Shown here piece by piece: positions 4,140 through 35,978 of a DNA stretch of 35,978 nt. The stretch comes from Eledone cirrhosa. Lineage: Eukaryota. The notes under the pieces are model-generated. The model saw nothing but the letters and a program-made list of their open reading frames with translations. It searched no databases and was not told the origin of the DNA. The stretch spans positions 1 through 35,978 of the forward strand of contig CAXHJY010001218.1 in assembly GCA_964016885.1 (NCBI GenBank), read 5' to 3'. The position numbers and the translations under genes were made by a program. Positions within the stretch are counted from its first letter, which is position 1; each line of letters starts with the position of its first letter.

Positions 4140-7100
4140 CTAAGGCGGGTAAAATTCCCGAGATCCATGGACGAGTTCTCTCCAGCGGTCTCTGTCCCTC
4201 ATTATCGCTGCCATATCCTGCATCTCCAACAGACCAGTGTCTGTCCTTAGGGCATCAACATTTGTTAACCTTGGTCTTCCTCTTCTAGTGTGTCCATGTA
4301 GGGGCTCCCAAAGGAGCACTGAGTGCAATGTCAACTCTGGATGTCGGTGAGCACGTCCAGCCAACCTCAGTTACCTCTGTGTCACTTTTGAGCTGACTTT
4401 TGGGATGCTCCCATACAGCTCTGAGTTGTTCATCCTCAGTGTATACTGATTAATGTTCAGAGCCATCCTGAGCATTCTCGTGTAGCACCCATCCACCATC
4501 TGAGTGAGTCTCTTGGTCAGTGTCCAAGTCTCAGACACATACAGCAGCACAGACTCCACTACAGCAATGAAGAGGCGGATTTTCAGGTCTCTACGAAGGT
4601 CCGACTTCCACACCGATCTCAAGCTGTGACACGCCACCCAGGCCTTGCTCTTCCTCTCAACCACATCATCTTCCGTATTCCCAATCTTTGCTCCCAAATA
4701 CAGGAAGTCCTCAACCAATTCCAGCGGCTTCCGGCCTACATTAGTGATCCCCTCTGGCTTCTCAACATTCTCTACCAGATATTTTGTTTTAGTCTCATTC
4801 ATTCTCAGCCCCACACTCATCGACACAGTCTCAACCTCCCGCATCAAATCCTCTGCCTCCTTTACTGTATTTGTCACCAAAACTATGTCGTCGGCAAATT
4901 CAGCATCCGATACCTTTTTCGCCCCAACTCTCCTGCTCTGAGCCGGTGTTACAGTAAAGCCAGAGTCCTGGTGTTTCTCCAGTGCAAGGCGCATACAATA
5001 GTCCACTGCGATGATAAAAAGGTAGGGAGCCAATGTATCTCCCTGGAGCACTCCAGCCAGTATCTCAAAGAACTCTGTCATCCCATCAGGTGTAATGACT
5101 TGGGCTTTGGTGTTGGTGTAGAGCAGTGATATCAGGTACACTATCCTCTTGGGGATTCCATAAGCCTGTAAGATCTTCATCAGGCAGTAACGGTCCACAG
5201 AATCAAAGGCCTTCCTAAAGTCAATGAAAACCATGACCGCAGGAAGACACTTTGCTCTAGCTCCCTCTAATATCCTCCTCAGCATCAGAATGTGACTGGT
5301 GGTTGATCTACCCTCTCTGAAGCCGTTCTGGTTGTCCCTGAGCTTCTTCTCCATCTCAGGCTGGATCCTGTTAAGAATCATCCTGTTGAGGGTCTTTGCC
5401 ACAAGTGACGTCAGTGAGATCCCCCGGTAGTTGTTGGTGTTAGAGAGATCTCCCTTCTTTGGCACTGGGACGATGTTACTGATCCTCCACTGATTCAGGG
5501 CAACTCCTTTCTCCAGTGCCCCGTTACAGAACCCCAGGATGATATCATAAAAATCACACCTCTTCATCACCTCTGATGCCACTCCATCTTCTCCATGAGC
5601 CTTGCCCTCCTTGATCTTCTTCTTGGCTCTCTGAAGCTCCTCTCTGGTGAAGGGCTCTGTCTCAACATCCAGTTCCTCAAACAGCCGCCTGATCTCCCCA
5701 GTGCTCTGGGCTGTGGAGGGTGGCTCTCCTAGTAGGCTCCTAAAATGGTCTAGCATTTCCTCTTCCTATCCTCGGGCCCCGTTCCCTGGATCTGACTCGA
5801 ACACCTTTTCTTCCTCCCTGTGATCTCGTTGATGATCATCCAGCTCTCCTTACATCCAGATCTGTCAACCGCTCTCTCCACACTTCTGATATTCTCTATC
5901 AGTGCCTCCTCTCTGACCTCAGTGTAAGCGGTACAGAGCTCTTCCCTCATCACCTCGACAGTCTCCATCCTCTCCTCCGTAGGATCAGCATAGAATTGGT
6001 CCCTGGCAGCTTTCAGGTGTTCTCTGGCTGCACACACTTTTGGGTTTGCAGAGCTGACGTGCTTCCCTTTGTTCTTTTTCCTCGGCACCAGGGTTTCACT
6101 TGCTTTCGCCACTGCATTGGTGAAGTGCCCGTACCTCCTCGTCACACTCTCCCCAGTCCATCCAATCTCTCTCTCCTCTGACTCTCCACACAGAGCACTA
6201 AACCTGTTTCTCACTTCCACTGTGAACCTCTCCTGTAGCTTATCATCTTCCTTGAAAGCTCCCCAGTCATAGATTGTTCTCCGGGGCTGAGCCTTGCTCT
6301 TTCTTAAGTTCACGCGGACCTCACTCATAACAAGCCGGTGGTCACTACCCAGTGTACTGAAATAGCTGTATGGTTCCGTGTTCAGAACACTATTCCGCCA
6401 CTTTTTCCTCACCAGAATGAAATCAATCTGGGACTTGGACAGGTGCATATCTGAGATGTAGGTCCACATCTTCCCCAGATTCTTCCTAAACCTTAGGTTG
6501 GTCGCCATCAAGTTCGCCTCCAGCAGGGTGTCTCTCAGTAGTCTTACATTTCGGTTGGTGTTGTTATGGAAGTACCAGCAAGGATCTTCACTGCCCTCCT
6601 TACTCAGATGTGCATTGACGTCCCCCAAAACAAGCAGGATATTGTGTGCCTGAGTGGTGTTGACAGCTCTACACACCTCCTCATGGAACTCCTCGGCATT
6701 CACATCACTGTCCCCCTCGGTTGGACTATAGGCTGAGATGACTGTCAGTCTTGGGTTTCCATTGAAGGTCACCCTCAACACTCGCGGGGAGATAGGCATT
6801 ATTTCCCTCACCAACAGATTGGTTTTTGCACTGAACACAAAACCCACTCCTCCTACTGCAGCATTTGTTGTGTTCTTCACTGCCGATGTAGTGATGAGCT
6901 GGCTCTTCCTCCCGATCATCACACTCCTCACGGGCTCATCGTGTAGAATCCTGTGTTCTTGGATCGCAAGTATCTGTATACCACTCTCCTCGAACAGATG
7001 TCCCAACTCCTCTCTCTTCTCCAGCGTTCGAATAGTCCTCACATTCAAAGTGCCCATTTTGATGGCTCTTCTGCAGGACAAAACTGCATTCTTTATATTT

Positions 7101-7246
7101 GTCTCAGAGACAGCTGATCCATCATCCACTGGCCCTCTCTGTGGCTGTAAGCCAGCAGAGTCATAACGACCAGGCTGCTCCTTGACAGTGTAATTAGGGG
7201 CTCTAACCCTAGTGCTGTTAGATCGACTCTCCATATTTCTTTTCAA
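4140..7246 (-). pseudogene. RTE APE endonuclease-reverse transcriptase polyprotein, disrupted
   Basis: APE motifs GTLNVRT, AIQEHR, SAYSPT, GDVNAH, QIDFILV, GSDH. RT motifs NYRGISL, QNGFR, FIDFRKAFD, GVLQGDTLAP, FADD. C-terminal RLAG...GRP. Frameshift near 5753 (TGC TAG where TGG CTA would keep the frame) and an in-frame TAA at 4371-4373. Confidence 0.92.
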
Positions 7247-7446
7247 TGGCTGACATTAACTTACCGGCGCCACTCGAATAAGGTAGTTATTTAACCCATA
7301 AATGGAGCCCTAAGAGGTACTACCACCCCGGGCCAGGGCAGACCTGGGAGTCATGACAACTAAGGGGTAACTCCACATTCCCCACATCTCCTGAACTCCC
7401 GAAATGGAGCCTTGCCACTGGATGTAGTTTAATGTCATACCCAGGA
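4140..7446 (-). mobile_element. RTE-clade non-LTR retrotransposon, apparently full length (about 3.3 kb), inactivated
   Basis: A 200-nt 5' leader, then one APE-RT reading path with no ORF1. Flanked by a candidate 32-bp target-site duplication (4107-4138 / 7447-7478). Confidence 0.9.
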
Positions 7447-17855: not shown

Positions 17856-20318
17856 CTAGCTAATAGGCTTAAAGTAAAAGAAAGAGCTTAATATCCGGTG
17901 GGGGCATGAGGAAAATATTTCCGACTTTCTATTTAGTAGGGAGCACTTGGCAAATATAATAGAGTGGGATTCCGTAAGGCATAGGTTACATACTCTATTA
18001 TGAGGAGTATATGGATGGGATTTAGCAACTTGCCGCCAAGTGAGGGTGTACTGTGTTCGTGCATTTTTTAAATTGTGGACGTGCGCTGCCAAGGGGGTAG
18101 AATTCTTCAGTTTATTATGTCTAAATGTACACTGGTGAGAGTTAAATCTGGTTTTAAAAGGGGTGGAAGTTGATCCAATATAAGTTTTAGTGGACGCAGT
18201 AGTTACCACATCACACGCATAAACTATGTTTCTAGTAAGGCAGAAACCATTCAGGGGGCAGCCCGAAGCCCTTCTACAGTTACAATTTCTGGTGATGCTA
18301 TTATCTAAATGATCACCAGCTTGGTGACCACGGGTGTTCAGGCTACCTCTGTCGACTCCAATGTTTTCCCCTAGGCGTAAGGTGTCGAGGCCTTCCTTAA
18401 TTTTCTTATTATTGGTATTGGCTAGATGAGAGGCCAGATTTTGGGTTGTAGAATACGAGAGTTTAACCACATTCTTATTGAGGATAGAGTGGTACCTATT
18501 ACCAGGAGGGAAGTTCCTCTCTAACACAGAGAAGAAGGCCCTAGGAATATTCGTAGCCACTTCGGAGTTAAATGGGGGGTTAAAATATGTATTCAATCTT
18601 CTTCTATTCTTTTTGTTCTTATTATTATTACTATTACTATTATTACTATTACTATTATTATTACCATTATTATTATTATTAATTCCATTGCTAAGGTTAC
18701 TATGTTCACCTAATCTATGCGGGGAGCTAAGAGGCCTACCGTTATTGTTACTTGGTCCATTGGTACCCTGTTGGTGCATTTTACCGGCATTCAAAACCCT
18801 CATGTTCGAAACACCTCTATTACCAATGGACATATTATGTGTTATAACAACACTGGTAGAGCTACTATTTGGACTATTATTTCCCTGGGCATAATGTAAT
18901 TTGTCCCTAAAGCCGGATCTAGCTAAGGCATCATTATAATAATCAGCCTGCGAGTTAAACGCCTCTTCGCTATGTGAGAGTGAACTTATTCTGCTAGAGA
19001 CCCCCTTCAATATACCACCGATGACCGATTTAGGATGGTTGGAGTTAGTATTCACATAAGTCAGCAATTCATTAGGCTTATGGTAGGGTGTGTACGTATG
19101 GTTACCTAAGTCCAATGTAACATCAAGGAAGTTGACAGTCCTATCATTTATATCCATAGTAATGGACAGATTGAAGGTTTTAAAGAATTTATACAGCTTT
19201 TTCCTAATGCGCACTATATTATACTTGCTAGCATCTATGGAGAGTAGGGCATCATCACGGTACAACCCACCCCTAAGGAATGGAAAGTTACTATGTAGTT
19301 CAGTAAGGAGGTAGAGCCCAACTAAGTCGGTGACCTGAGCAGAATCACTTGACCCCATAGTAATGTCAAAATTATCCGGTGTGTTTTTTCTCGTCCATAA
19401 ATTATCCTCAAACATAATGATGGTTTTACGTGCGGCGAGAACGATATCTATCTGTGGCCGTGTAATGACCCCTCTCTGCATGGCTAGGATAAGGGCCTTA
19501 TTGAGGATGATAGGAGATATAGATGTATAATAAGCATCAATATCAAATTGGATAAACCTAAGCGAATCACGCCCACAATCCGTAGAAAACCACCTAATGA
19601 CTTCACTAGCATTACCCCAAAGCTCAAGGAATGTTTTTCTTTAACCAGGGGAATTACGCTATCTAAGATTCTCTTACTTATAAACCCCAAATCAGACTTG
19701 GAGGGGCAGATAAGCCTAACTGAGGGGCTACTAATAAAGTTTTCCTTATGGTCCTTAAGGGTGAATCTAGGCTGTTTGGGGTAATATGGTTGAGTGTGTT
19801 TATCTAGACCTAATTTTACTACTATGTTAATATTATTAACATAGATTAATATTATCTAAATTACTCTGCGTTGTTTTTTTGTAGTTCCTATGTAGTTCAT
19901 TATAAATGAAGCCACGATAAGTTTTATAATCCATACTATACAGGTTTTTAGTTTTGTCGGAAGGGACCAGAATAGATTTATTATCCTTAAAGTCCTTAAC
20001 GATTGAACCGAGTTTACTCTGAAAGTTATTGGTACATCTAGATTTTTTATACCTAATATTCCTGACAAGGGATAACAGCTCACTTTCGAAATTATCCAAT
20101 AGGCTATTGTGTGTGGGGCTCCTATATGTCTTAAAGCCATAATTATTAAAACTACACTTATCATCAGGGTTATCATACTTCTTATCAAAATAGAACGCAC
20201 GCTACCGAACACGTTTTACAAAGGAATTTATGCTAGTTATAAGCAATTTCTCATATGAAATTTTAGAAGAGGTGGGAATATTCTTCAAAGAAATGGGTAA
20301 GTATGTCTTTGTTAGCAT
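17856..20318 (-). pseudogene. PLE reverse transcriptase-GIY-YIG endonuclease, disrupted
   Basis: ATG at 20318 gives MLTKTYLPISLKNIP..., with a TAG at 20202-20204 and frameshifts near 19835 and 19630. Motifs TLKDHKENF, FIQFDIDAYY, FDITMGSSD, GLYRDDA, NFLDVTL, FNPPF, CNC..CPL..C, IVY...YIGST..FKTRFNSH, CNLCLTE, LLN...CPH. Confidence 0.92.

Positions 20319-22521: not shown

Positions 22522-22612
<91 letters not shown>
21641..22612. repeat. Interrupted (TA)nCA microsatellite
   Basis: Direct reading. Confidence 0.98.
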
Positions 22613-22614
<2 letters not shown>

Positions 22615-22662
22615 TATAGATAGGTAAATATACACGGGTGTGTATGATTGTGTATAGAAGAT

Positions 22663-23191
22663 TATATTAATAAGAGGAATTCCAACTTTGTCTGATTTAC
22701 TCGTTTTATTTACAATCCTTTAAAATATATATAATGGTATTATAATGAAATAGTATGATAGAATATTAAATTCTAAGTGTTAATTGAACAAGTACTTTCA
22801 TGCTTTCGCAATCTTCAGGTTCATGATATGTGGTGACAGTCGAGTTTGCAATTTTCAACTGTAATGAGATGGGTAAATTTCCTACCTTTTATACATTTTA
22901 TACAGAGAAAAGTGGCTCCAGAATGCAAAGCCCTGCAAACTGTATTTCGACCAATCAGTGTGTAGTTTCACTGAATTACTACAGCTGATTGGTTTAAGCG
23001 TCACGGCTGGTTGAGCATGCTAACGACCAATAGTCATATCCAACGTATCAATTGTTTTGCTTTTTTGAAATGATGAAAATAGCATTTTCTATTAATCATC
23101 ACCATCAACATCACTTTTATTATTATTATTATTGTTGTTGTTGTTGTTGTTAGTGGTCGTGGTCATAGTGGTAGTAGAAGTAATACCCCTA
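22663..23191 (-). repeat. Inverted copy of the 3' pLTR (27030-27558)
   Basis: Mirror coordinates sum to 50221. Four substitutions noticed in 529 bp. Confidence 0.95.
22785..22823 (-). ncRNA. Minimal type I hammerhead in the inverted pLTR
   Basis: Reverse complement of 27398-27436. Confidence 0.8.
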
Positions 23192-23522
23192 CGTCTTGTA
23201 GAATTCTTCGCTGATAAAAATAATGAGAGTGATGAATCACTAGTAAAGAATAATATTCTATCATACTATTTCATTATAATACCATTATATATATTTTAAA
23301 GGATTGTAAATAAAACGAGTAAATCAGACAAAGTTGGAATTCCTCTTATTAATATAATCTTCTATACACAATCATACACACCCGTGTATATTTACCTATC
23401 TATATCTATATATATATTCCTATTGTGTATATGCCAACATGTCTGGAAAGCAACAAATGAAACCAACAGAATCATAAAGAATTCTAAAGGAGATATCATC
23501 GAAATTATCAACACTTATCACG

Positions 23523-24788
23523 ATGATGGACACACAATCCTCTATTTTAAAGGAAATAGAAAAACAATCTACAGACGGAAAACTTATAACTGAACATATA
23601 AACTCTGAAATTAAGAATTTAGCTGAAATTATACCAACAGTTATCAAAGATACAAGAGAAAGCCTACCACAACCCCCTTGGATGTCAGAAATAAACGAAA
23701 GAAATTTGGAAAACAAAACACATCGAATAAGAAAAGAAATGTGGAAGACATGGAAAAAATTCCTTAACATAAGAAAACAAAATTTCTGGAAAGCATACAG
23801 ATGCGAAAAATATGTCGAAACACATTCGAAATGGCTCTCTCTAACGGCACCCATACTCCCTCGTAAATACCTAATTACAGAAATTGCAGGAGAACCAGAA
23901 GAAGAAACAAAACTCCGATGGGAACTTACATTGACAAAATTCAGGACCGACATCTCCATTTCTGAATGTAAACAATCCCGCTACAAAGCCAAATATGAAG
24001 CTATTGATGACCAAATTGAAGTTGAAATTTCAAAGCTAACGACTGGTATTATAGCTGAAAAACTACGAGAACTATGGATCGGAGATATCTCAAAAGAAGA
24101 AAACAAATCAAGAAAGGTATGGCAGCAGAAACAATTATTTCTCGATGAATATGCTGCAAATTACGGTAAAGACTCTGGAACCCTGAGAAAAAGCATTAAA
24201 AGTGGACAATCTCATCAACACAACATACGCCAGAACACGTGCCAACACAAACACTCACCTTACCTTGAATCAAAGAAGAACTACGGTAATAACTCTTCGC
24301 TTTTTCTACAAAAACACCCTATCGCACACAACATGAACAAAAAGCACAAACACGATAGGTATTCCTTTGACCAGACCATGAGAAGTAGTAAAACCAGGAG
24401 ATCATTCTCAAGATCTCAACAGAGACTACCAACAAGGAATGTGGAAACAAAACGTAGAATAACCAGATCACTCTCAAGATCTCAACAGAGATTGCCCACA
24501 AGAAACTGGACGAAAAAACGATCTAAACCTGAAAGCAAACCTAGGTCATTTTCCCAGATTGTTAAAAATAATGCTAACAGGAAGAAAAATAATATACAGA
24601 ATACCAAAAATAGGACAAAATACATAACGAAACCAAATATAATATCACGACCAAAAGTTCATCAAGCGAACACCAACAGGAATATAAATCCTGAACAGAG
24701 AAAAATTCATTTTTTAACGTCAGGACAACAAAAACCGGAAAAAGAAAAACTCCAGGAGGAAACATACCCAAAACAGCTGTACACGTAG
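23523..24788 (+). CDS. PLE upstream ORF1 (421 aa): charged helical N-terminal half and basic Arg/Ser/Lys-rich C-terminal half; function unknown
   Basis: Long open frame inside the element with a duplicated RSxSRSQQRLPTRN motif (66-nt period, 24399 and 24465). The ancestral start is probably ATG 23439, which is in frame but followed by one TAA at 23475-23477. Confidence 0.75.
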   Translation: MMDTQSSILKEIEKQSTDGKLITEHINSEIKNLAEIIPTVIKDTRESLPQPPWMSEINERNLENKTHRIRKEMWKTWKKFLNIRKQNFWKAYRCEKYVETHSKWLSLTAPILPRKYLITEIAGEPEEETKLRWELTLTKFRTDISISECKQSRYKAKYEAIDDQIEVEISKLTTGIIAEKLRELWIGDISKEENKSRKVWQQKQLFLDEYAANYGKDSGTLRKSIKSGQSHQHNIRQNTCQHKHSPYLESKKNYGNNSSLFLQKHPIAHNMNKKHKHDRYSFDQTMRSSKTRRSFSRSQQRLPTRNVETKRRITRSLSRSQQRLPTRNWTKKRSKPESKPRSFSQIVKNNANRKKNNIQNTKNRTKYITKPNIISRPKVHQANTNRNINPEQRKIHFLTSGQQKPEKEKLQEETYPKQLYT

Positions 24789-27022
24789 ATCCTAAAATAA
24801 TTAATTTATCTAAAAGAGATCTTGACAATGATGAAATGCAAATTCTGTCAAAAGGACTGAAATTCACACCGATTCCAACAGTCAACCACCAAGAACTGAA
24901 GGAGGATACCCAAGAATTCTGTCGAAAATTACGTCTTGTAGAATTCTTCGCTGATAAAAATAATGAGAGTGATGAATCACTAGTAAAGAATAAATCAAAT
25001 TTCACTCCGCCAAAAGGAAGAAATATCTATCTCGACCAATACATTGACATCCTGTCTAAATTTCCTCTTAGACATAATACTAATGTTAGGCCAAACATTA
25101 ACAAATCAGAAATGTCTGCACTTAAACGTATACAAAATGATAAAACAATAATAATTAAACAAGCAGATAAAGGGGGTGCAGTTGTTATAATGGATACTGA
25201 ATACTACAAGGATTTGGTTGAGGAACAACTGAAAGACACAACATTCTATCATGAAATACCGTCAAATATAGACCACAACATCATGAAGAAGATCAACAAC
25301 CTGGCTTCAAAATACCACAACTCATTTACTGATAAGGAAAGAGACTACATCACCAATTTTGAGCCGAAACCCAGCAACCTGTATGGCCTACCGAAAGTTC
25401 ACAAGTCAAAAGAAATACAACTGGCAGTAAGAGAACAAAACAGTGTGTACATTAAATTATTACACCCAAAAGACTTAAAACTTAGACCTATTATAGCTGG
25501 TCCAACATGCCCCACTCACCGTCTAAGCAATTTTGTTGACATTATTTTGAAACCACTATGTATTCACATACCCAGTTTCATCCGGGATGATATCGACTTC
25601 CTGTCCCATCTTCCCCAAACCACGGAAACGAATTCACTTCTACTCAGTTTTGATGTGGTAAGCCTTTACACCAACATTACACATGATTTAGGAATAAAGG
25701 CGGTTAAATACTGGGTGGAAAAACATAGAGAAGTGATTCCCATTAGATTCACAGCGCCATTTATATTAGACGCAGTTAAACTTATTCTGGAAAACAACAC
25801 TTTCTTCTTAAATGGAAAGAATTACATCCAAATTAGAGGCACAGTGATGGGAACGAAGTTTGCTCCCGTTTACGCGAACTCTGTAATGGGATACTTAGAA
25901 CAACAACTCTACCAAGAAATAGAGGAAAAATATAGTACTGACTTTAGAAAGTACATTGAAAAATCTTGGAAGAGATACCTTGACGACTGTTTCATCATCT
26001 GGACAGAATCTCTAGATACTCTGGATGAGTTCAATATCCTCCTGAATAACCTACACCCATCTCTCCAATTCACAAAAGAGATGAGTAGGACCAAATTACC
26101 ATTCCTAGATATAATGATAATCAAAAACGACACCACCATTACCACGGATATATATTATAAACACACAGACACCCATCAATATCTGAATTTTAAGTCGTGC
26201 CATCCACCTCATACAAAACGCAACATCCCATACTGCCTAGCCAGAAGAATTTGTACCATTGTAGAAGATACGAATACCAGGTACAAACGCCTAACAGAAC
26301 TAAGAGAATTTTTGCTCAAACAAAAATACCCATCTCTACTTATAGAAAATGGCATACAGCGGGCTATAAAAATACCTATACAACAACTTAGAACAACCCA
26401 AAGAAGAAGAAACCAAGAACTGGTCATACCATTTATAATGACACACAACCCATGTCACCAGAATATCTTCAACACTGCCAAAGCAAACCTACCGATCATT
26501 GCTCAAAGTAATGAATTAAAAGGCTTAATCACAGATCGATCTTTGACTCTTAGTAAAAGACAGCCAAAAAATTTGAAGCAATTGCTAACAAAAGCAAAGT
26601 TTGACCTTAACAACAAAGACCAATCATTCACTGTATCTAAATGCAATGATAATCGATGCGGCACATGTCAATCCATACACGCCGGTCAATATATGAAAAC
26701 AAAAACTGGAAAAATATTCACAAATGCAAATATGAACTGCAAAAGCAGAAATCTAATTTACTGCATTAAATGCCCGAATTGTGAAGAACTATATGTCGGT
26801 CAAACTGGAAATGCACTATCGGAACGTGCACGGGTACACCGTCAACAAATCAGAGACCCAAATGTCCGTCAGATACCCCTAAGCGGCCACCTGGCAACAT
26901 GTGGTCAGGGAATATTTATAATATTCCCATTCTACAAATTACACAGCCCAAATGAAATCAAGAGAAAAATCAAAGAAAAGAATTTTATTGATAAATTCAA
27001 ACCCAAGCTAAATGAACAATAA
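24695..27022 (+). CDS. PLE reverse transcriptase-GIY-YIG endonuclease, intact frame (first ATG at 24836; frame open from 24695)
   Basis: IINLS (upstream of the ATG), LSKGLKFTP, KQADKGG, YGLPKVHK, LRPII, SFDVVSLYT, GTVMGTKFAP, RYLDDCF, PFLDI, C-xxx-RC-xx-C linker, LIY...C..C...YVGQT...R...H. Confidence 0.95.
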   Translation, partial: TEKNSFFNVRTTKTGKRKTPGGNIPKTAVHVDPKIINLSKRDLDNDEMQILSKGLKFTPIPTVNHQELKEDTQEFCRKLRLVEFFADKNNESDESLVKNKSNFTPPKGRNIYLDQYIDILSKFPLRHNTNVRPNINKSEMSALKRIQNDKTIIIKQADKGGAVVIMDTEYYKDLVEEQLKDTTFYHEIPSNIDHNIMKKINNLASKYHNSFTDKERDYITNFEPKPSNLYGLPKVHKSKEIQLAVREQNSVYIKLLHPKDLKLRPIIAGPTCPTHRLSNFVDIILKPLCIHIPSFIRDDIDFLSHLPQTTETNSLLLSFDVVSLYTNITHDLGIKAVKYWVEKHREVIPIRFTAPFILDAVKLILENNTFFLNGKNYIQIRGTVMGTKFAPVYANSVMGYLEQQLYQEIEEKYSTDFRKYIEKSWKRYLDDCFIIWTESLDTLDEFNILLNNLHPSLQFTKEMSRTKLPFLDIMIIKNDTTITTDIYYKHTDTHQYLNFKSCHPPHTKRNIPYCLARRICTIVEDTNTRYKRLTELREFLLKQKYPSLLIENGIQRAIKIPIQQLRTTQRRRNQELVIPFIMTHNPCHQNIFNTAKANLPIIAQSNELKGLITDRSLTLSKRQPKNLKQLLTKAKFDLNNKDQSFTVSKCNDNRCGTCQSIHAGQYMKTKTGKIFTNANMNCKSRNLIYCIKCPNCEELYVGQTGNALSERARVHRQQIRDPNVRQIPLSGHLATCGQGIFIIFPFYKLHSPNEIKRKIKEKNFIDKFKPKLNEQ
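24710..24716 (+). promoter_or_regulatory. Candidate -1 programmed ribosomal frameshift slippery site (T TTT TTA)
   Basis: X XXY YYZ heptamer correctly phased to ORF1 (CAT TTT TTA). It lies 15 nt after the last stop (TGA 24692-24694) of the -1 frame that encodes RT. Confidence 0.65.
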
Positions 27023-27189
27023 TAACGCCTAGGGGTATTACTTCTACTACCACTATGACCACGACCACTAACAACAACAACAACAACAATAATAATAATA
27101 ATAAAAGTGATGTTGATGGTGATGATTAATAGAAAATGCTATTTTCATCATTTCAAAAAAGCAAAACAATTGATACGTTGGATATGACT

Positions 27190-27335
27190 ATTGGTCGTTA
27201 GCATGCTCAACCAGCCGTGACGCTTAAACCAATCAGCTGTAGTAATTCAGTGAAACTACACACTGATTGGTCGAAATACAGTTTACAGGGCTTTGCACTC
27301 TGGAGCCACTTTTCACTGTATAAAATGTATAAAAG
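27190..27335 (+). promoter_or_regulatory. Putative Pol II promoter in the pLTR
   Basis: Three CCAAT/ATTGG boxes (27190, 27229, 27266) spaced 37-39 bp apart, then TATAAAA twice (27319, 27328), about 65 nt upstream of the hammerhead. Confidence 0.5.
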
Positions 27336-27397
27336 GTAGGAAATTTACCCATCTCATTACAGTTGAAAATTGCAAAGTCGACTGTCACCACATATCA

Positions 27398-27436
27398 TGA
27401 ACCTGAAGATTGCGAAAGCATGAAAGTACTTGTTCA
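27398..27436 (+). ncRNA. Minimal type I hammerhead ribozyme in the 3' pLTR
   Basis: TGAAC-CTGAAGA-T-TGC(GAAA)GCA-T-GAA-AGTACT-T-GTTCA: perfect 5-bp stem I, GNRA-capped stem II, palindromic stem III. Predicted cut after 27431. Confidence 0.8.
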
Positions 27437-27556
27437 ATTAACACTTAGAATTTAATATTCTATCATACTATTTCATTATAATACCATTATATATATTTTA
27501 AAGGATTGTAAATAAAACGAGTAAATCAGACAAAGTTGGAATTCCTCTTATTAATA

Positions 27557-28348
<792 letters not shown>

Positions 28349-28464: not shown

Positions 28465-33527
<5,063 letters not shown>

Positions 33528-35978
33528 AAGGAAGCTGTGGAATCGCTTCTTGACTTCATGGATGATTTCTTCCTATCCCAACTAGTGCTCGAACCAACGA
33601 GGTGCCACAAAAACGTCCTAGACTTAATTTTCAGCAATCACACTGACAATATCCACAATATTGCAGTGGAGAAAACTCTACTCTCTGATCATGACATGGT
33701 TCTCTGTGATCTGAGTTTCCACCGTCCAATATACAAACCCAATGTCATTTCTCCTGTCCATCCGTTTGACGCTATGGATTTCCACAATGCAAACTGGGAA
33801 GCGATCAGTCATGATCTTGCACATGTCGACTGGTCCTTCACGCACACTCATACACCCACTAACATCAAAAAGTCCTGGCAGACATTTGTGGACACTGTTA
33901 CAAACATATGTGCTAAACACACCCCATTAAGAACTATAAACAAATCTAAGAGCAGAATCCCTAGAAATAGAAAAACACTCATCAGAAAAATTAAGAGAAC
34001 GAACAAAAAAATCAACAAGCTGAAATACTGTCAGCAGCAACACATCAACTTGACTGCCATTTCATCACTAGAGATTAAAAAACATAACCTCCAAAACAAC
34101 ATAATGTCCCATCAACAATCAGAGAAGAGCTGTCAGAGAAGAGCTGAAGAGGCCTGGGCCATTGAGAAGATCAAACTCAATCCCAAAGTCTTCTTTTCAT
34201 TTGCAAAAAAACACAAAATCACTGGCTCTACTGTTGGCCCTCTAATTGATGAAAATGGCACTCTTCAAGACAATGCTAAAACCATGGGTGAGATACTGCA
34301 GAAACAATACTGCTCTGTTTTCAGCAATCCTGATATGGCCGATCTGGGCTGTATCGGCGATGTTACTCCCCATTACACCTTATCGGACATAACGTTTGGC
34401 GCCCCTGATGTCTTGGCGGCAATAAAGGAAATCAAGCATAATTCAGCAGTAGGTCCCGATAGGTTCCCTGCTTGTGTCTTGAAGGCGTGTCAACACCAAC
34501 TTGCTTCTCCTCTTGCCAATCTGTGGCGGAACTCACTGGATGCTGGATATGTGCCAGAAAACCTTCTATCCCAGTCTGTTGTCCCAGTTTTCAAAAAGGG
34601 AAACAAATCCCTTGCCGTGAATTACCGTCCAATCTCACTCACCTCTCATATCATTAAGGTATTTGAGCGAGTGGTGAGATCGCGAATGACCCACTTCCTT
34701 GAGAGTAACAATATGCTGAACTCCAACCAGCATGGATTCCGTAATGGAAGGGATTGCCTGACGCAACTACTGCATCACTTTGATGACATTTTGAGAGCCT
34801 TGGGAGAGGGTTCCAACACTGATGTTATCTACCTTGATTTCAGCAAGGCCTTTGACAGGGTTGATCATAACATTCTACTGAGAAAGCTGTCCAATATTGG
34901 TGTCACTGGAGAGCTGCTGCAGTGGATCAAGAGCTTCCTGTCAAACAGAACCCAACATGTTGTAGTTGAGGGAGTCAAATCAAGCCCAGCCAAAGTCAGT
35001 AGTGGAGTCCCACAAGGCACTGTGTTGGGCCCACTTCTCTTCATCATCTATATTAATGACATCACTGACATCATCAAACACAGCAACATTAAAATTTTCG
35101 CTGATGATTCCAAGCTCCAAAAGGTCATCAATGGCGTGGATGACCGGATAAGCCTTCAGTCAGACCTACTGGCTGTTACCCAATGGGCAGAAAAGAACAA
35201 CATGTTACTGAACGAAGACAAATTCGAACTGATCCACTTTGGAAAAGAGGATGCTCTGAAACTCCCGTACTCCCTTCCCTCCGGGGAAACTCTCGTGGCA
35301 TCTAACAACATCAGAGACTTGGGAGTAACCGTGGACAGCAACATAAGCTGGACCACGCATATAAGCAGCAAAGTTGACATGGCCCGCAGAATGTGTTCCT
35401 GGATCCTCAGAACCTTCCAGTCGAGAGATTCCCGCACCATTATCCTTCTCTTCTCTACTTTCGCCCGACCACACCTTGAATACTGTTGTCCACTGTGGTC
35501 TCCCCACACGAAACAAAGTATCATGAAACTTGAAGCTCCTCAAAGGGCAATCACGAAAAAGATAGATGGCATGTCAGACCTTGACTACTGGGGTCGATTG
35601 GAAAACCTGAAACTTTACTCACTCCAACGTCGCCGTGAGCGTTATATTATCTGCATGATGTGGAAAATGTTCCATCATCACTGCCCAAATGATGTTGGCA
35701 TCGCCTTCAAGATACACCCAAGGCTTGGGCCCCGTGCTATCCGTCCCATTCAAAAATCTAAATCGCAACTCATAACAACAATACGGCACAATTATTTCAC
35801 CTCAATCGGCCCTGCTCTCTTCAACATCACACCAGGACACGTCAAAACAGAAACTGACCACACAAAATTCAAGAAGTCTTTGGACAAATTCCTCCAAGTA
35901 ATCCCGGACAAACCACCCACACCCGGATATGTCTCCGCAAACAGTAATTCTCTTCTCGAATGGGCCATGGTGCCCAAA
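33528..35978 (+). mobile_element. CR1-superfamily LINE, 5'-truncated within the APE domain; uninterrupted ORF2 fragment (817 codons) running off the window
   Basis: Manual translation from 33528 gives EPTR..VLDLIF..SDH (end of APE), [81 protein letters not shown]. No stop codon was found, which explains its absence from the ORF track. Confidence 0.92.

Follow-up and report, generated by a model that had tools for sequence, protein, structure and literature searches.

Conservation across two lineages of a predicted -1 frameshift signal between ORF1 and the reverse transcriptase–endonuclease of a Neptune-like Penelope element from Eledone cirrhosa

The stretch of DNA described here (the window) comprises 35,978 nucleotides (nt) of contig CAXHJY010001218.1 from the Eledone cirrhosa assembly GCA_964016885.1 and carries, between (TA)n arrays, the insertion of a Penelope-like element (PLE), as delimited by window anatomy and self-BLAST. 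In 5' to 3' order the element consists of an inverted pseudo-long terminal repeat (pLTR) with a tail, a 64-bp fragment of the reverse transcriptase (RT) gene, the last 167 bp of a direct pLTR, an upstream open reading frame (ORF1), the RT, a CX4CxxC linker, a GIY-YIG endonuclease (EN) and a 3' pLTR (Table 1). ORF1 and the RT frame overlap by 94 nt in the -1 relation. This overlap had been proposed in a sequence-only reading of the window and was re-measured here, with the upstream frame extending from stop to stop over 23478-24788 (436 amino acids, aa) and the RT frame over 24695-27022. The heptamer T TTT TTA, which that reading had placed in the overlap, lies in the ORF1 phase and is the sole run of six T on the plus strand of the whole coding region (23439-27022). 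As background, an in-phase run of six T (T6) occurs once in a total of 4003 ORF1 codons upstream of the junction in nine related loci. Two hallmarks of a programmed -1 signal, a conserved X XXY YYZ heptamer in phase and its location within a -1 overlap, are both found here.

Table 1. Features of the Penelope-like element and its coding junction (positions in the window)
Feature	Position	Strand	Evidence or remark
Inverted pLTR with tail (copy of the 3' end), adjoining (TA)n	22562..23191	-	self-BLAST 96% to 27030-27661
64-bp RT-gene piece exactly at the inverted-pLTR junction	23190..23253	+	100% identical to 24930-24993
Truncated direct 5' pLTR end/tail running into ORF1	23251..23417	+	88% to 27453-27621
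ORF1 of 449 codons, with a heptad-like helix, a conserved helical domain reaching about 24160, and a low-complexity basic tail of pI 11.9	23439..24788	+	
Premature stop TAA at ORF1 codon 13, private to the window copy	23475..23477	+	other letter at 23475 in all depth of runs X1 and X6 and in 96% of X11
Stop opening the RT frame, TGA	24692..24694	+	reads TAA, still a stop, in run X11
RT–Zn-linker–GIY-YIG frame, 775 aa	24695..27022	+	Pfam and homologues
Heptamer T TTT TTA, slippery and in phase with ORF1; predicted site of the -1 shift	24710..24716	+	CAT TTT TTA = H-F-L
Further canonical heptamer within the overlap, C CCA AAA, also in phase	24767..24773	+	
ORF1 stop TAG, 23 codons after the heptamer	24786..24788	+	
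CX4CxxC zinc-finger linker, CNDNRCGTC, typical of Neptune/Nematis	26642..26668	+	translation; defining motif as in PMC8557442
3' pLTR, ending in a (TA)n microsatellite	27030..27555	+	
Candidate hammerhead-like motif of minimal type I, with stems I and II and the core CUGAAGA...GAAA	27398..27436	+	motif scan and fold, z -0.3

The RT frame matches the Pfam models GIY-YIG (E 3e-6, above the cut-off) and RVT_1 (E 3e-6, below the gathering score). The N-terminal GxKF and DKG motifs of PLE-type RTs are present as KGLKF and ADKGG and are conserved in the homologue alignment.

Copies of the element in sequencing runs were examined for the possibility that the -1 offset is private to the window. Four of the 23 listed runs were compared over 23425-24960; contigs over all 30 bins numbered 303 in X1, 486 in X6 and 1096 in X11 (organisms A, C and H), and run X9 gave one contig, off the junction. 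Contigs bridge the junction in X1 and X6. The four rows of the indel table all fall at 24440-24583, none at or after the heptamer, and no indel is listed between 24584 and 24960 in X1, X6 and X11. None of the substitutions listed (40 of 310 rows) lies inside 24710-24716.

Related loci were fetched to a total of 96, namely 16 from genomes and the best 80 out of 280 that were confirmed when one third of the metagenome collection was searched. Fourteen of them have an in-phase T TTT TT(A/G) in a -1 overlap (L001-L005, L009-L011, L013, L015, L017, L019, L028 and L081), and two (L014 and L020) have T TTA AAC in phase with the stop directly behind it, so that the -1 layout with an in-phase slippery heptamer is shared by 16 related loci. 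A quick RT tree was built from 74 rows, 12 of them frameshift rows. It contains a Poseidon-type clade of 48 rows (support 100), to which none of the 12 belongs; the members of this clade carry a long N-terminal extension within a single ORF, and their loci in no case show an in-phase T6. The frameshift rows form two RT lineages, one with the ORF1 type of the window, the other with unrelated ORF1s of 600-840 aa. In L011, L014, L015, L017, L019 and L020 the latter end, directly before the slippery site, in a domain presumed to be SGNH/GDSL-like from a by-eye reading of GDS/GxxD/DGxH motifs; these esterase-like ORF1s gave no Pfam match. Being common to two lineages with unrelated ORF1s, the signal has outlasted ORF1 replacement. 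The check proposed in the earlier reading, whether heptamer and offset are conserved among relatives, is thereby answered in the affirmative by 16 loci from two deep RT lineages, and from these sequences the -1 frameshift signal is judged to be real and conserved across families in a two-ORF Neptune-like PLE.

Because the T6 run is present in 15 of the 17 junctions (window included), slippage of the RNA polymerase on the run could be thought to yield messenger RNA in the RT frame. Its codon phase is the same in all 15, although a slipping polymerase would not require this; the remaining two loci use U UUA AAC, and six T is short for polymerase slippage. This explanation is hardly credible.

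A search with the ORF1 N-terminal domain gave 402 homologue clusters at 50% identity, 150 of them listed, and the full-length set comprised 78 of 149 new ORF1 matches (320-500 aa). Phe-Leu occurs within the last 50 residues in 66 of these 78 proteins, against 9-13% expected. The residue before it is H in 24 cases, S in 10, R in 9, P in 8, N in 6, Y in 4, D in 3, and G and L in one each. K, E, Q, M and W, whose codons are unable to end in U, never precede it (0/66 against a background of 24%, p about 2e-8 if independent). Named homologues come from bivalves (Mytilus, Saccostrea, Pinctada) or from bivalve-symbiont assemblies, the latter likely through carry-over from the host. Animal-type PLEs also sit under bacterial labels in bacterial metagenome-assembled genomes or symbiont assemblies (L081-L096, P0007, P0011, P0062, P0091, P0275), where host DNA carry-over is again likely.

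A fused form was not present among the 120 listed of 466 RT homologues (517-817 aa; search range to 1357), nor among the 149 ORF1 matches (maximum 609 aa), and a search of longer proteins for a fusion also found none, which is weak evidence. The sequence-only reading had named as its refutation a family with one continuous ORF, in which the offset would be a private indel or a homopolymer sequencing error. The site is indeed a homopolymer of T, and further private lesions are present in this copy. With no indel listed in three runs, the -1 layout in 16 other loci and no fused homologue, the chance of this is next to nil, and the -1 offset is not private.

A T run followed by AG could also serve as a 3' splice acceptor, ORF1 being removed as an intron and RT supplied by splicing. 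PLEs retain introns according to PMC8557442, nine of the 17 junctions read TTTTTTAG, with AG after the run, and G, E, D or A, that is a G after the heptamer, follows Phe-Leu in 46 of the 66 proteins. In the other eight junctions, the window's included, no AG follows the run, and two use U UUA AAC. Splicing is weakened by these eight, and since it would not fix the phase of ORF1 to RT it does not explain a -1 phase in all 17. The check for splicing called for earlier therefore leaves it very unlikely.

The conserved motif IINLS is residue 35 of the RT frame (24797), upstream of the first ATG at 24836 (residue 48), as had been noted in the earlier reading, and no AUG precedes the conserved RT N-terminus in the window RT frame. 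A Met call was obtained for 16 junction loci, the window among them but not L013, and in 11 of these the first Met lies inside the RT model. A separate start of RT, whether ribosomes re-initiate behind the ORF1 stop or begin at a non-AUG codon, with the heptamer incidental, could draw on the ATA/ATT codons that precede IINLS or stand at its start (24764, 24797, 24800) and on the intact 700-800-aa RT ORFs given by gene callers. It is highly improbable, as the position of the first Met varies widely, from ahead of the conserved motif to deep within RT, and the conservation of the heptamer would stay unexplained.

The RT–endonuclease is thus very probably made by programmed -1 ribosomal frameshifting on U UUU UUA. 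A ribosome translating ORF1 would slip back one base on the heptamer, giving RT–EN as a fusion. Most ribosomes would end at the ORF1 stop and release a 449-aa helical protein with a basic tail, and a minority would shift and produce a fusion of about 1194 aa with the junction ...IHF(L/F)NVRTTK..., so that slippage would set a high ratio of ORF1 to enzyme. Any stimulator would not be one conserved structure, hairpins being found in a few families and none being evident in that of the window. From the gag-pol-like expression proposed in the sequence-only reading, the layout, the phased heptamer and its conservation are retained as observed; the frameshifting itself is predicted from them, and we infer slippage, its rate, the ratio of ORF1 to fusion and the role of ORF1. 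A single fusion of about 1,170-1,190 aa had been foreseen. One fusion is still predicted, and its size in the family state is 426+768 = 1194 aa since ORF1 starts at ATG 23439.

This start follows from the TAA at 23475 being private to the window copy: the family ORF1 begins at ATG 23439 and has 449 aa. Four further substitutions in the window copy fall at RT columns at least 90% conserved among 105 homologues. On the strength of the private ORF1 stop and these four changes the window copy is probably dead, and with the stop at codon 13 it likely makes neither full product.

Several observations weigh against programmed frameshifting as the mode of expression. The window copy is itself damaged, and some copies may carry heptamer substitutions in rows beyond the 40 listed. 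The T run is shorter in L027, which is a decayed member of the L004 family; an upstream ORF in the -1 frame is absent from L052, a relative that lacks EN; and L021 is broken and unreadable. Twelve of the 78 full-length ORF1 homologues have no terminal Phe-Leu (two have HFF, two YFR, and one ends in HF). No stimulator was found by folding in the window family, and among 17 junctions scanned crudely for pseudoknots L028 gave the sole candidate. In addition, L022 and L026 are either truncated or differently built, and several contigs begin only past the junction.

Two relatives with other arrangements were seen. In L022 (2998-4059) the RT frame includes, ahead of RT, about 275 aa showing the pattern H...D...Q...C, which suggests a cysteine-protease-like domain. 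L040 (1043-1241) has a long-branch RT with no recognisable endonuclease and a 413-aa upstream ORF in -1 overlap, with A AAA AAC three bases before its stop.

ORF1 is predicted by AlphaFold as all-helical with long helices (mean pLDDT 89), and its tail after the helices has 26% K/R. No Pfam family was common to more than one of 88 members, and no Foldseek match was found at E<=0.001; the best structural matches are to generic helical bundles (best VIA Z 9.1, rmsd 6.4, 124 aligned). The ORF1 profile gave weak coiled-coil-type matches only against PDB sequences, and the best value in the ESM Atlas, 0.77, is at chance level. There was no match to Gag, and a look for the marks of Gag, L1 ORF1p and SGNH esterases (capsid fold, Zn knuckle, RRM, esterase motifs) gave no more than the generic helical-bundle matches. 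By analogy ORF1 is likely an RNA-binding scaffold of a ribonucleoprotein (RNP), a gag- or L1-ORF1p-like RNA-packaging component; with no Pfam family and only generic helical matches, the scaffold role is an analogy and not a result.

With HIV-1 gag-pol the element has in common the site U UUU UUA, the structural ORF in the zero frame with the enzyme in -1, and the Leu/Phe heterogeneity to be expected at the junction (PMC5009743). It differs in being non-viral and target-primed, in an ORF1 with no Gag match, and in having no conserved stem-loop at a fixed spacer in the family. Scans of viral contigs gave no match.

Several features place the element near the Neptune clade as defined in Craig et al. 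2021 (PMC8557442): RT, a CX2-5CxxC linker between RT and EN (here CNDNRCGTC), a C-terminal GIY-YIG with CCHH, an inverted pLTR with tail, a (TA)n target and, as a candidate, a hammerhead-like motif. The two cysteines between GIY and YIG are seen in IYCIKCPNCEELYVG, with two later His. The pLTRs have the inverted/tandem arrangement with a tail and (TA)n target known from Neptune; the tail at 22602-22768 is 100% identical to 23251-23417 by self-BLAST, and the 64-bp RT piece at the inverted junction is likely the scar of a template switch. The candidate hammerhead-like motif shows the core and two stems and had no Rfam hammerhead match. The linker puts the element with Neptune or Nematis, and its spacing to GIY, judged by eye against the rows in Fig. 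S2 of PMC8557442, resembles the Neptune rows and not the short Nematis rows. The element is called Neptune-like on its motifs, the quick RT tree only setting it apart from the Poseidon-type clade. Whereas canonical endonuclease-bearing (EN+) PLEs are given in the abstract of that article as single-ORF, the window element has a separate 449-aa ORF1 in -1 overlap.

Two other assignments were rejected. A canonical single-ORF EN+ PLE does not fit, two ORFs in -1 overlap being the family state, and an Athena/Coprina element, endonuclease-less (EN-), does not fit a GIY-YIG domain and flanks of (TA)n rather than telomeric repeats. We take Athena/Terminon elements to be the PLEs described in print with a frameshift and a pseudoknot; the Athena type differs from the present element in having no endonuclease and in being telomeric, and a conserved pseudoknot was not found in the window family. 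The legend of Fig. 1 of PMC8557442, and that of the preprint, describe PLEs in which a frameshift with a pseudoknot can set ORF1 apart, the clade not being named there; these resemble the window element in an ORF1 of predicted coiled-coil character upstream of RT with a frameshift between. The supplement of that article uses "ORF1" only for Chlamys and does not contain "pseudoknot". PMC6431247 likewise sets single-ORF EN+ against two-ORF EN- PLEs. According to Rodriguez et al. 2017 (PMC5408684), Neptune-like PLEs from fish and molluscs have esterases, so that an extra domain or ORF is already known; the window ORF1 is not of the esterase type. Passages of PMC3846280 and PMC5718144 add nothing on an ORF1/frameshift layout, and a search of the frameshifting review PMC5009743 for "Penelope" gave 0 occurrences. 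No slippery site in EN+ PLEs was found in the literature searched, the scope of which left outside figures, Arkhipova 2006, 2017 MBE, Gladyshev 2007 and Repbase notes, any of which may describe one. The layout is less novel in EN+ PLEs than the sequence-only reading suggested, an extra ORF in Neptune-like elements and an ORF1/frameshift layout in some type of PLE being in print; it may already be drawn for Neptune in Fig. 1 of PMC8557442. Added here are quantitative support, the unnamed ORF1 family and a prediction from a 10-codon spacing.

A stimulatory hairpin or pseudoknot would be expected 5-9 nt downstream of a slippery site. In this element, no strong hairpin was found downstream of the heptamer in the window (folding z about +0.3 to +0.8, no better than shuffles; +0.3 to +0.7 in three downstream stretches), in agreement with the sequence-only reading. 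Hairpins with z <= -2.6 occur in three of 15 junctions folded (L001, L010, L028). A hairpin 5' of the heptamer at 24678-94 (z -2.8) was rejected, one arm being changed in run X11 (24693). In the consensus fold of five junctions (L002/L003/L005/L013) no compensatory change was found in 6 pairs.

The spacer from heptamer to ORF1 stop is 10 codons in 18 of the 66 proteins, 9 in one, and shorter in none. The hazard of a stop at 10 codons is 28%, against 10% later (p 3e-5 if independent), and unrelated peptides fill the 10 codons. To place the 10-codon label on the ORF1 tree takes 7 changes, of which at least 4 are forced, and at the DNA level a spacer of 10 is found in 7 of the 16 related junctions, in both RT lineages. 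The base after the stop is C (weak termination) in 5/7 junctions at spacer 10 against 2/10 otherwise (p 0.058; 0.035 when L013 is omitted). Where the spacer is long, the ORF1s have in common a terminal motif like (E/Q)-T-x-(P/V)-K, 3-4 codons ahead of the stop (window 24755-24788; P0122, P0126, P0127, P0130, P0140, P0150, P0152, P0155, P0159); in the window this motif coincides with the second heptamer C CCA AAA, and it could be an RNA element or a nascent-peptide pause.

The offset of an 80S disome is about 10 codons. Smith et al. 2019 (PMC6815119) showed with synthetic reporters in E. coli that when one ribosome pauses on a stop codon, the ribosome behind it is stimulated to slip by -1 at a distance of 8-10 codons, with a peak at 9. 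The likeness lies in the distance between slippery heptamer and stop, which is 8-10 codons with a slowly decoded stop there and 10 codons in many relatives here; the difference is a bacterial and synthetic system, no natural eukaryotic case being shown there, and the window spacer of 23 codons. Bhatt et al. 2021 (PMC8168617) report that stop position tunes SARS-CoV-2 frameshifting by another route, and at the pseudoknot of that virus frameshifting falls as ribosome load rises. From the sequences it is conceivable, although rather unlikely, that Zn-linker EN+ PLEs are generally two-ORF and frameshift-expressed, and that in many a ribosome terminating exactly 10 codons downstream stalls the next one on the slippery site. 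Ribosome collision is offered only tentatively as a stimulator for many relatives, and it does not explain the window family. Other points speak against it: the 10-codon trait is clustered among kin (0/500 shuffles as low), three loci have a spacer of 0-1, and in L010 and L028 a 25-nt hairpin ends just before the stop, whose placement just behind the hairpin would explain the spacing as a rival to collision.

Elsewhere in the window, a second, broken PLE at 17856-20300 (-) has DKT in place of DKG and a different C-terminal nuclease; by sequence it resembles the Hydra clade as described in PMC8557442. Its 594-aa frame had no Pfam match. Two coding regions of long interspersed nuclear elements (LINEs), at 4371-7255 (-) and 33500-35978 (+), lie between long (TA)/(CA) arrays. 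By their motifs they are presumably RTE-like and CR1/L2-like.

For the family, frameshift expression would mean that a large group of EN+ PLEs uses a gag-pol-like ratio switch and not a single ORF, that the annotated RT ORFs of such elements are N-terminally incomplete, and that an ORF1 family of at least 402 clusters stands unnamed. Two deep lineages with interchangeable ORF1s would keep one -1 signal, and nature would offer a single slippery site in numerous variants, whose RNA stimulators differ or are absent. The 10-codon spacer is a testable prediction on whether ribosome queues program eukaryotic frameshifting and, if true, would be a natural eukaryotic case of collision-programmed frameshifting.

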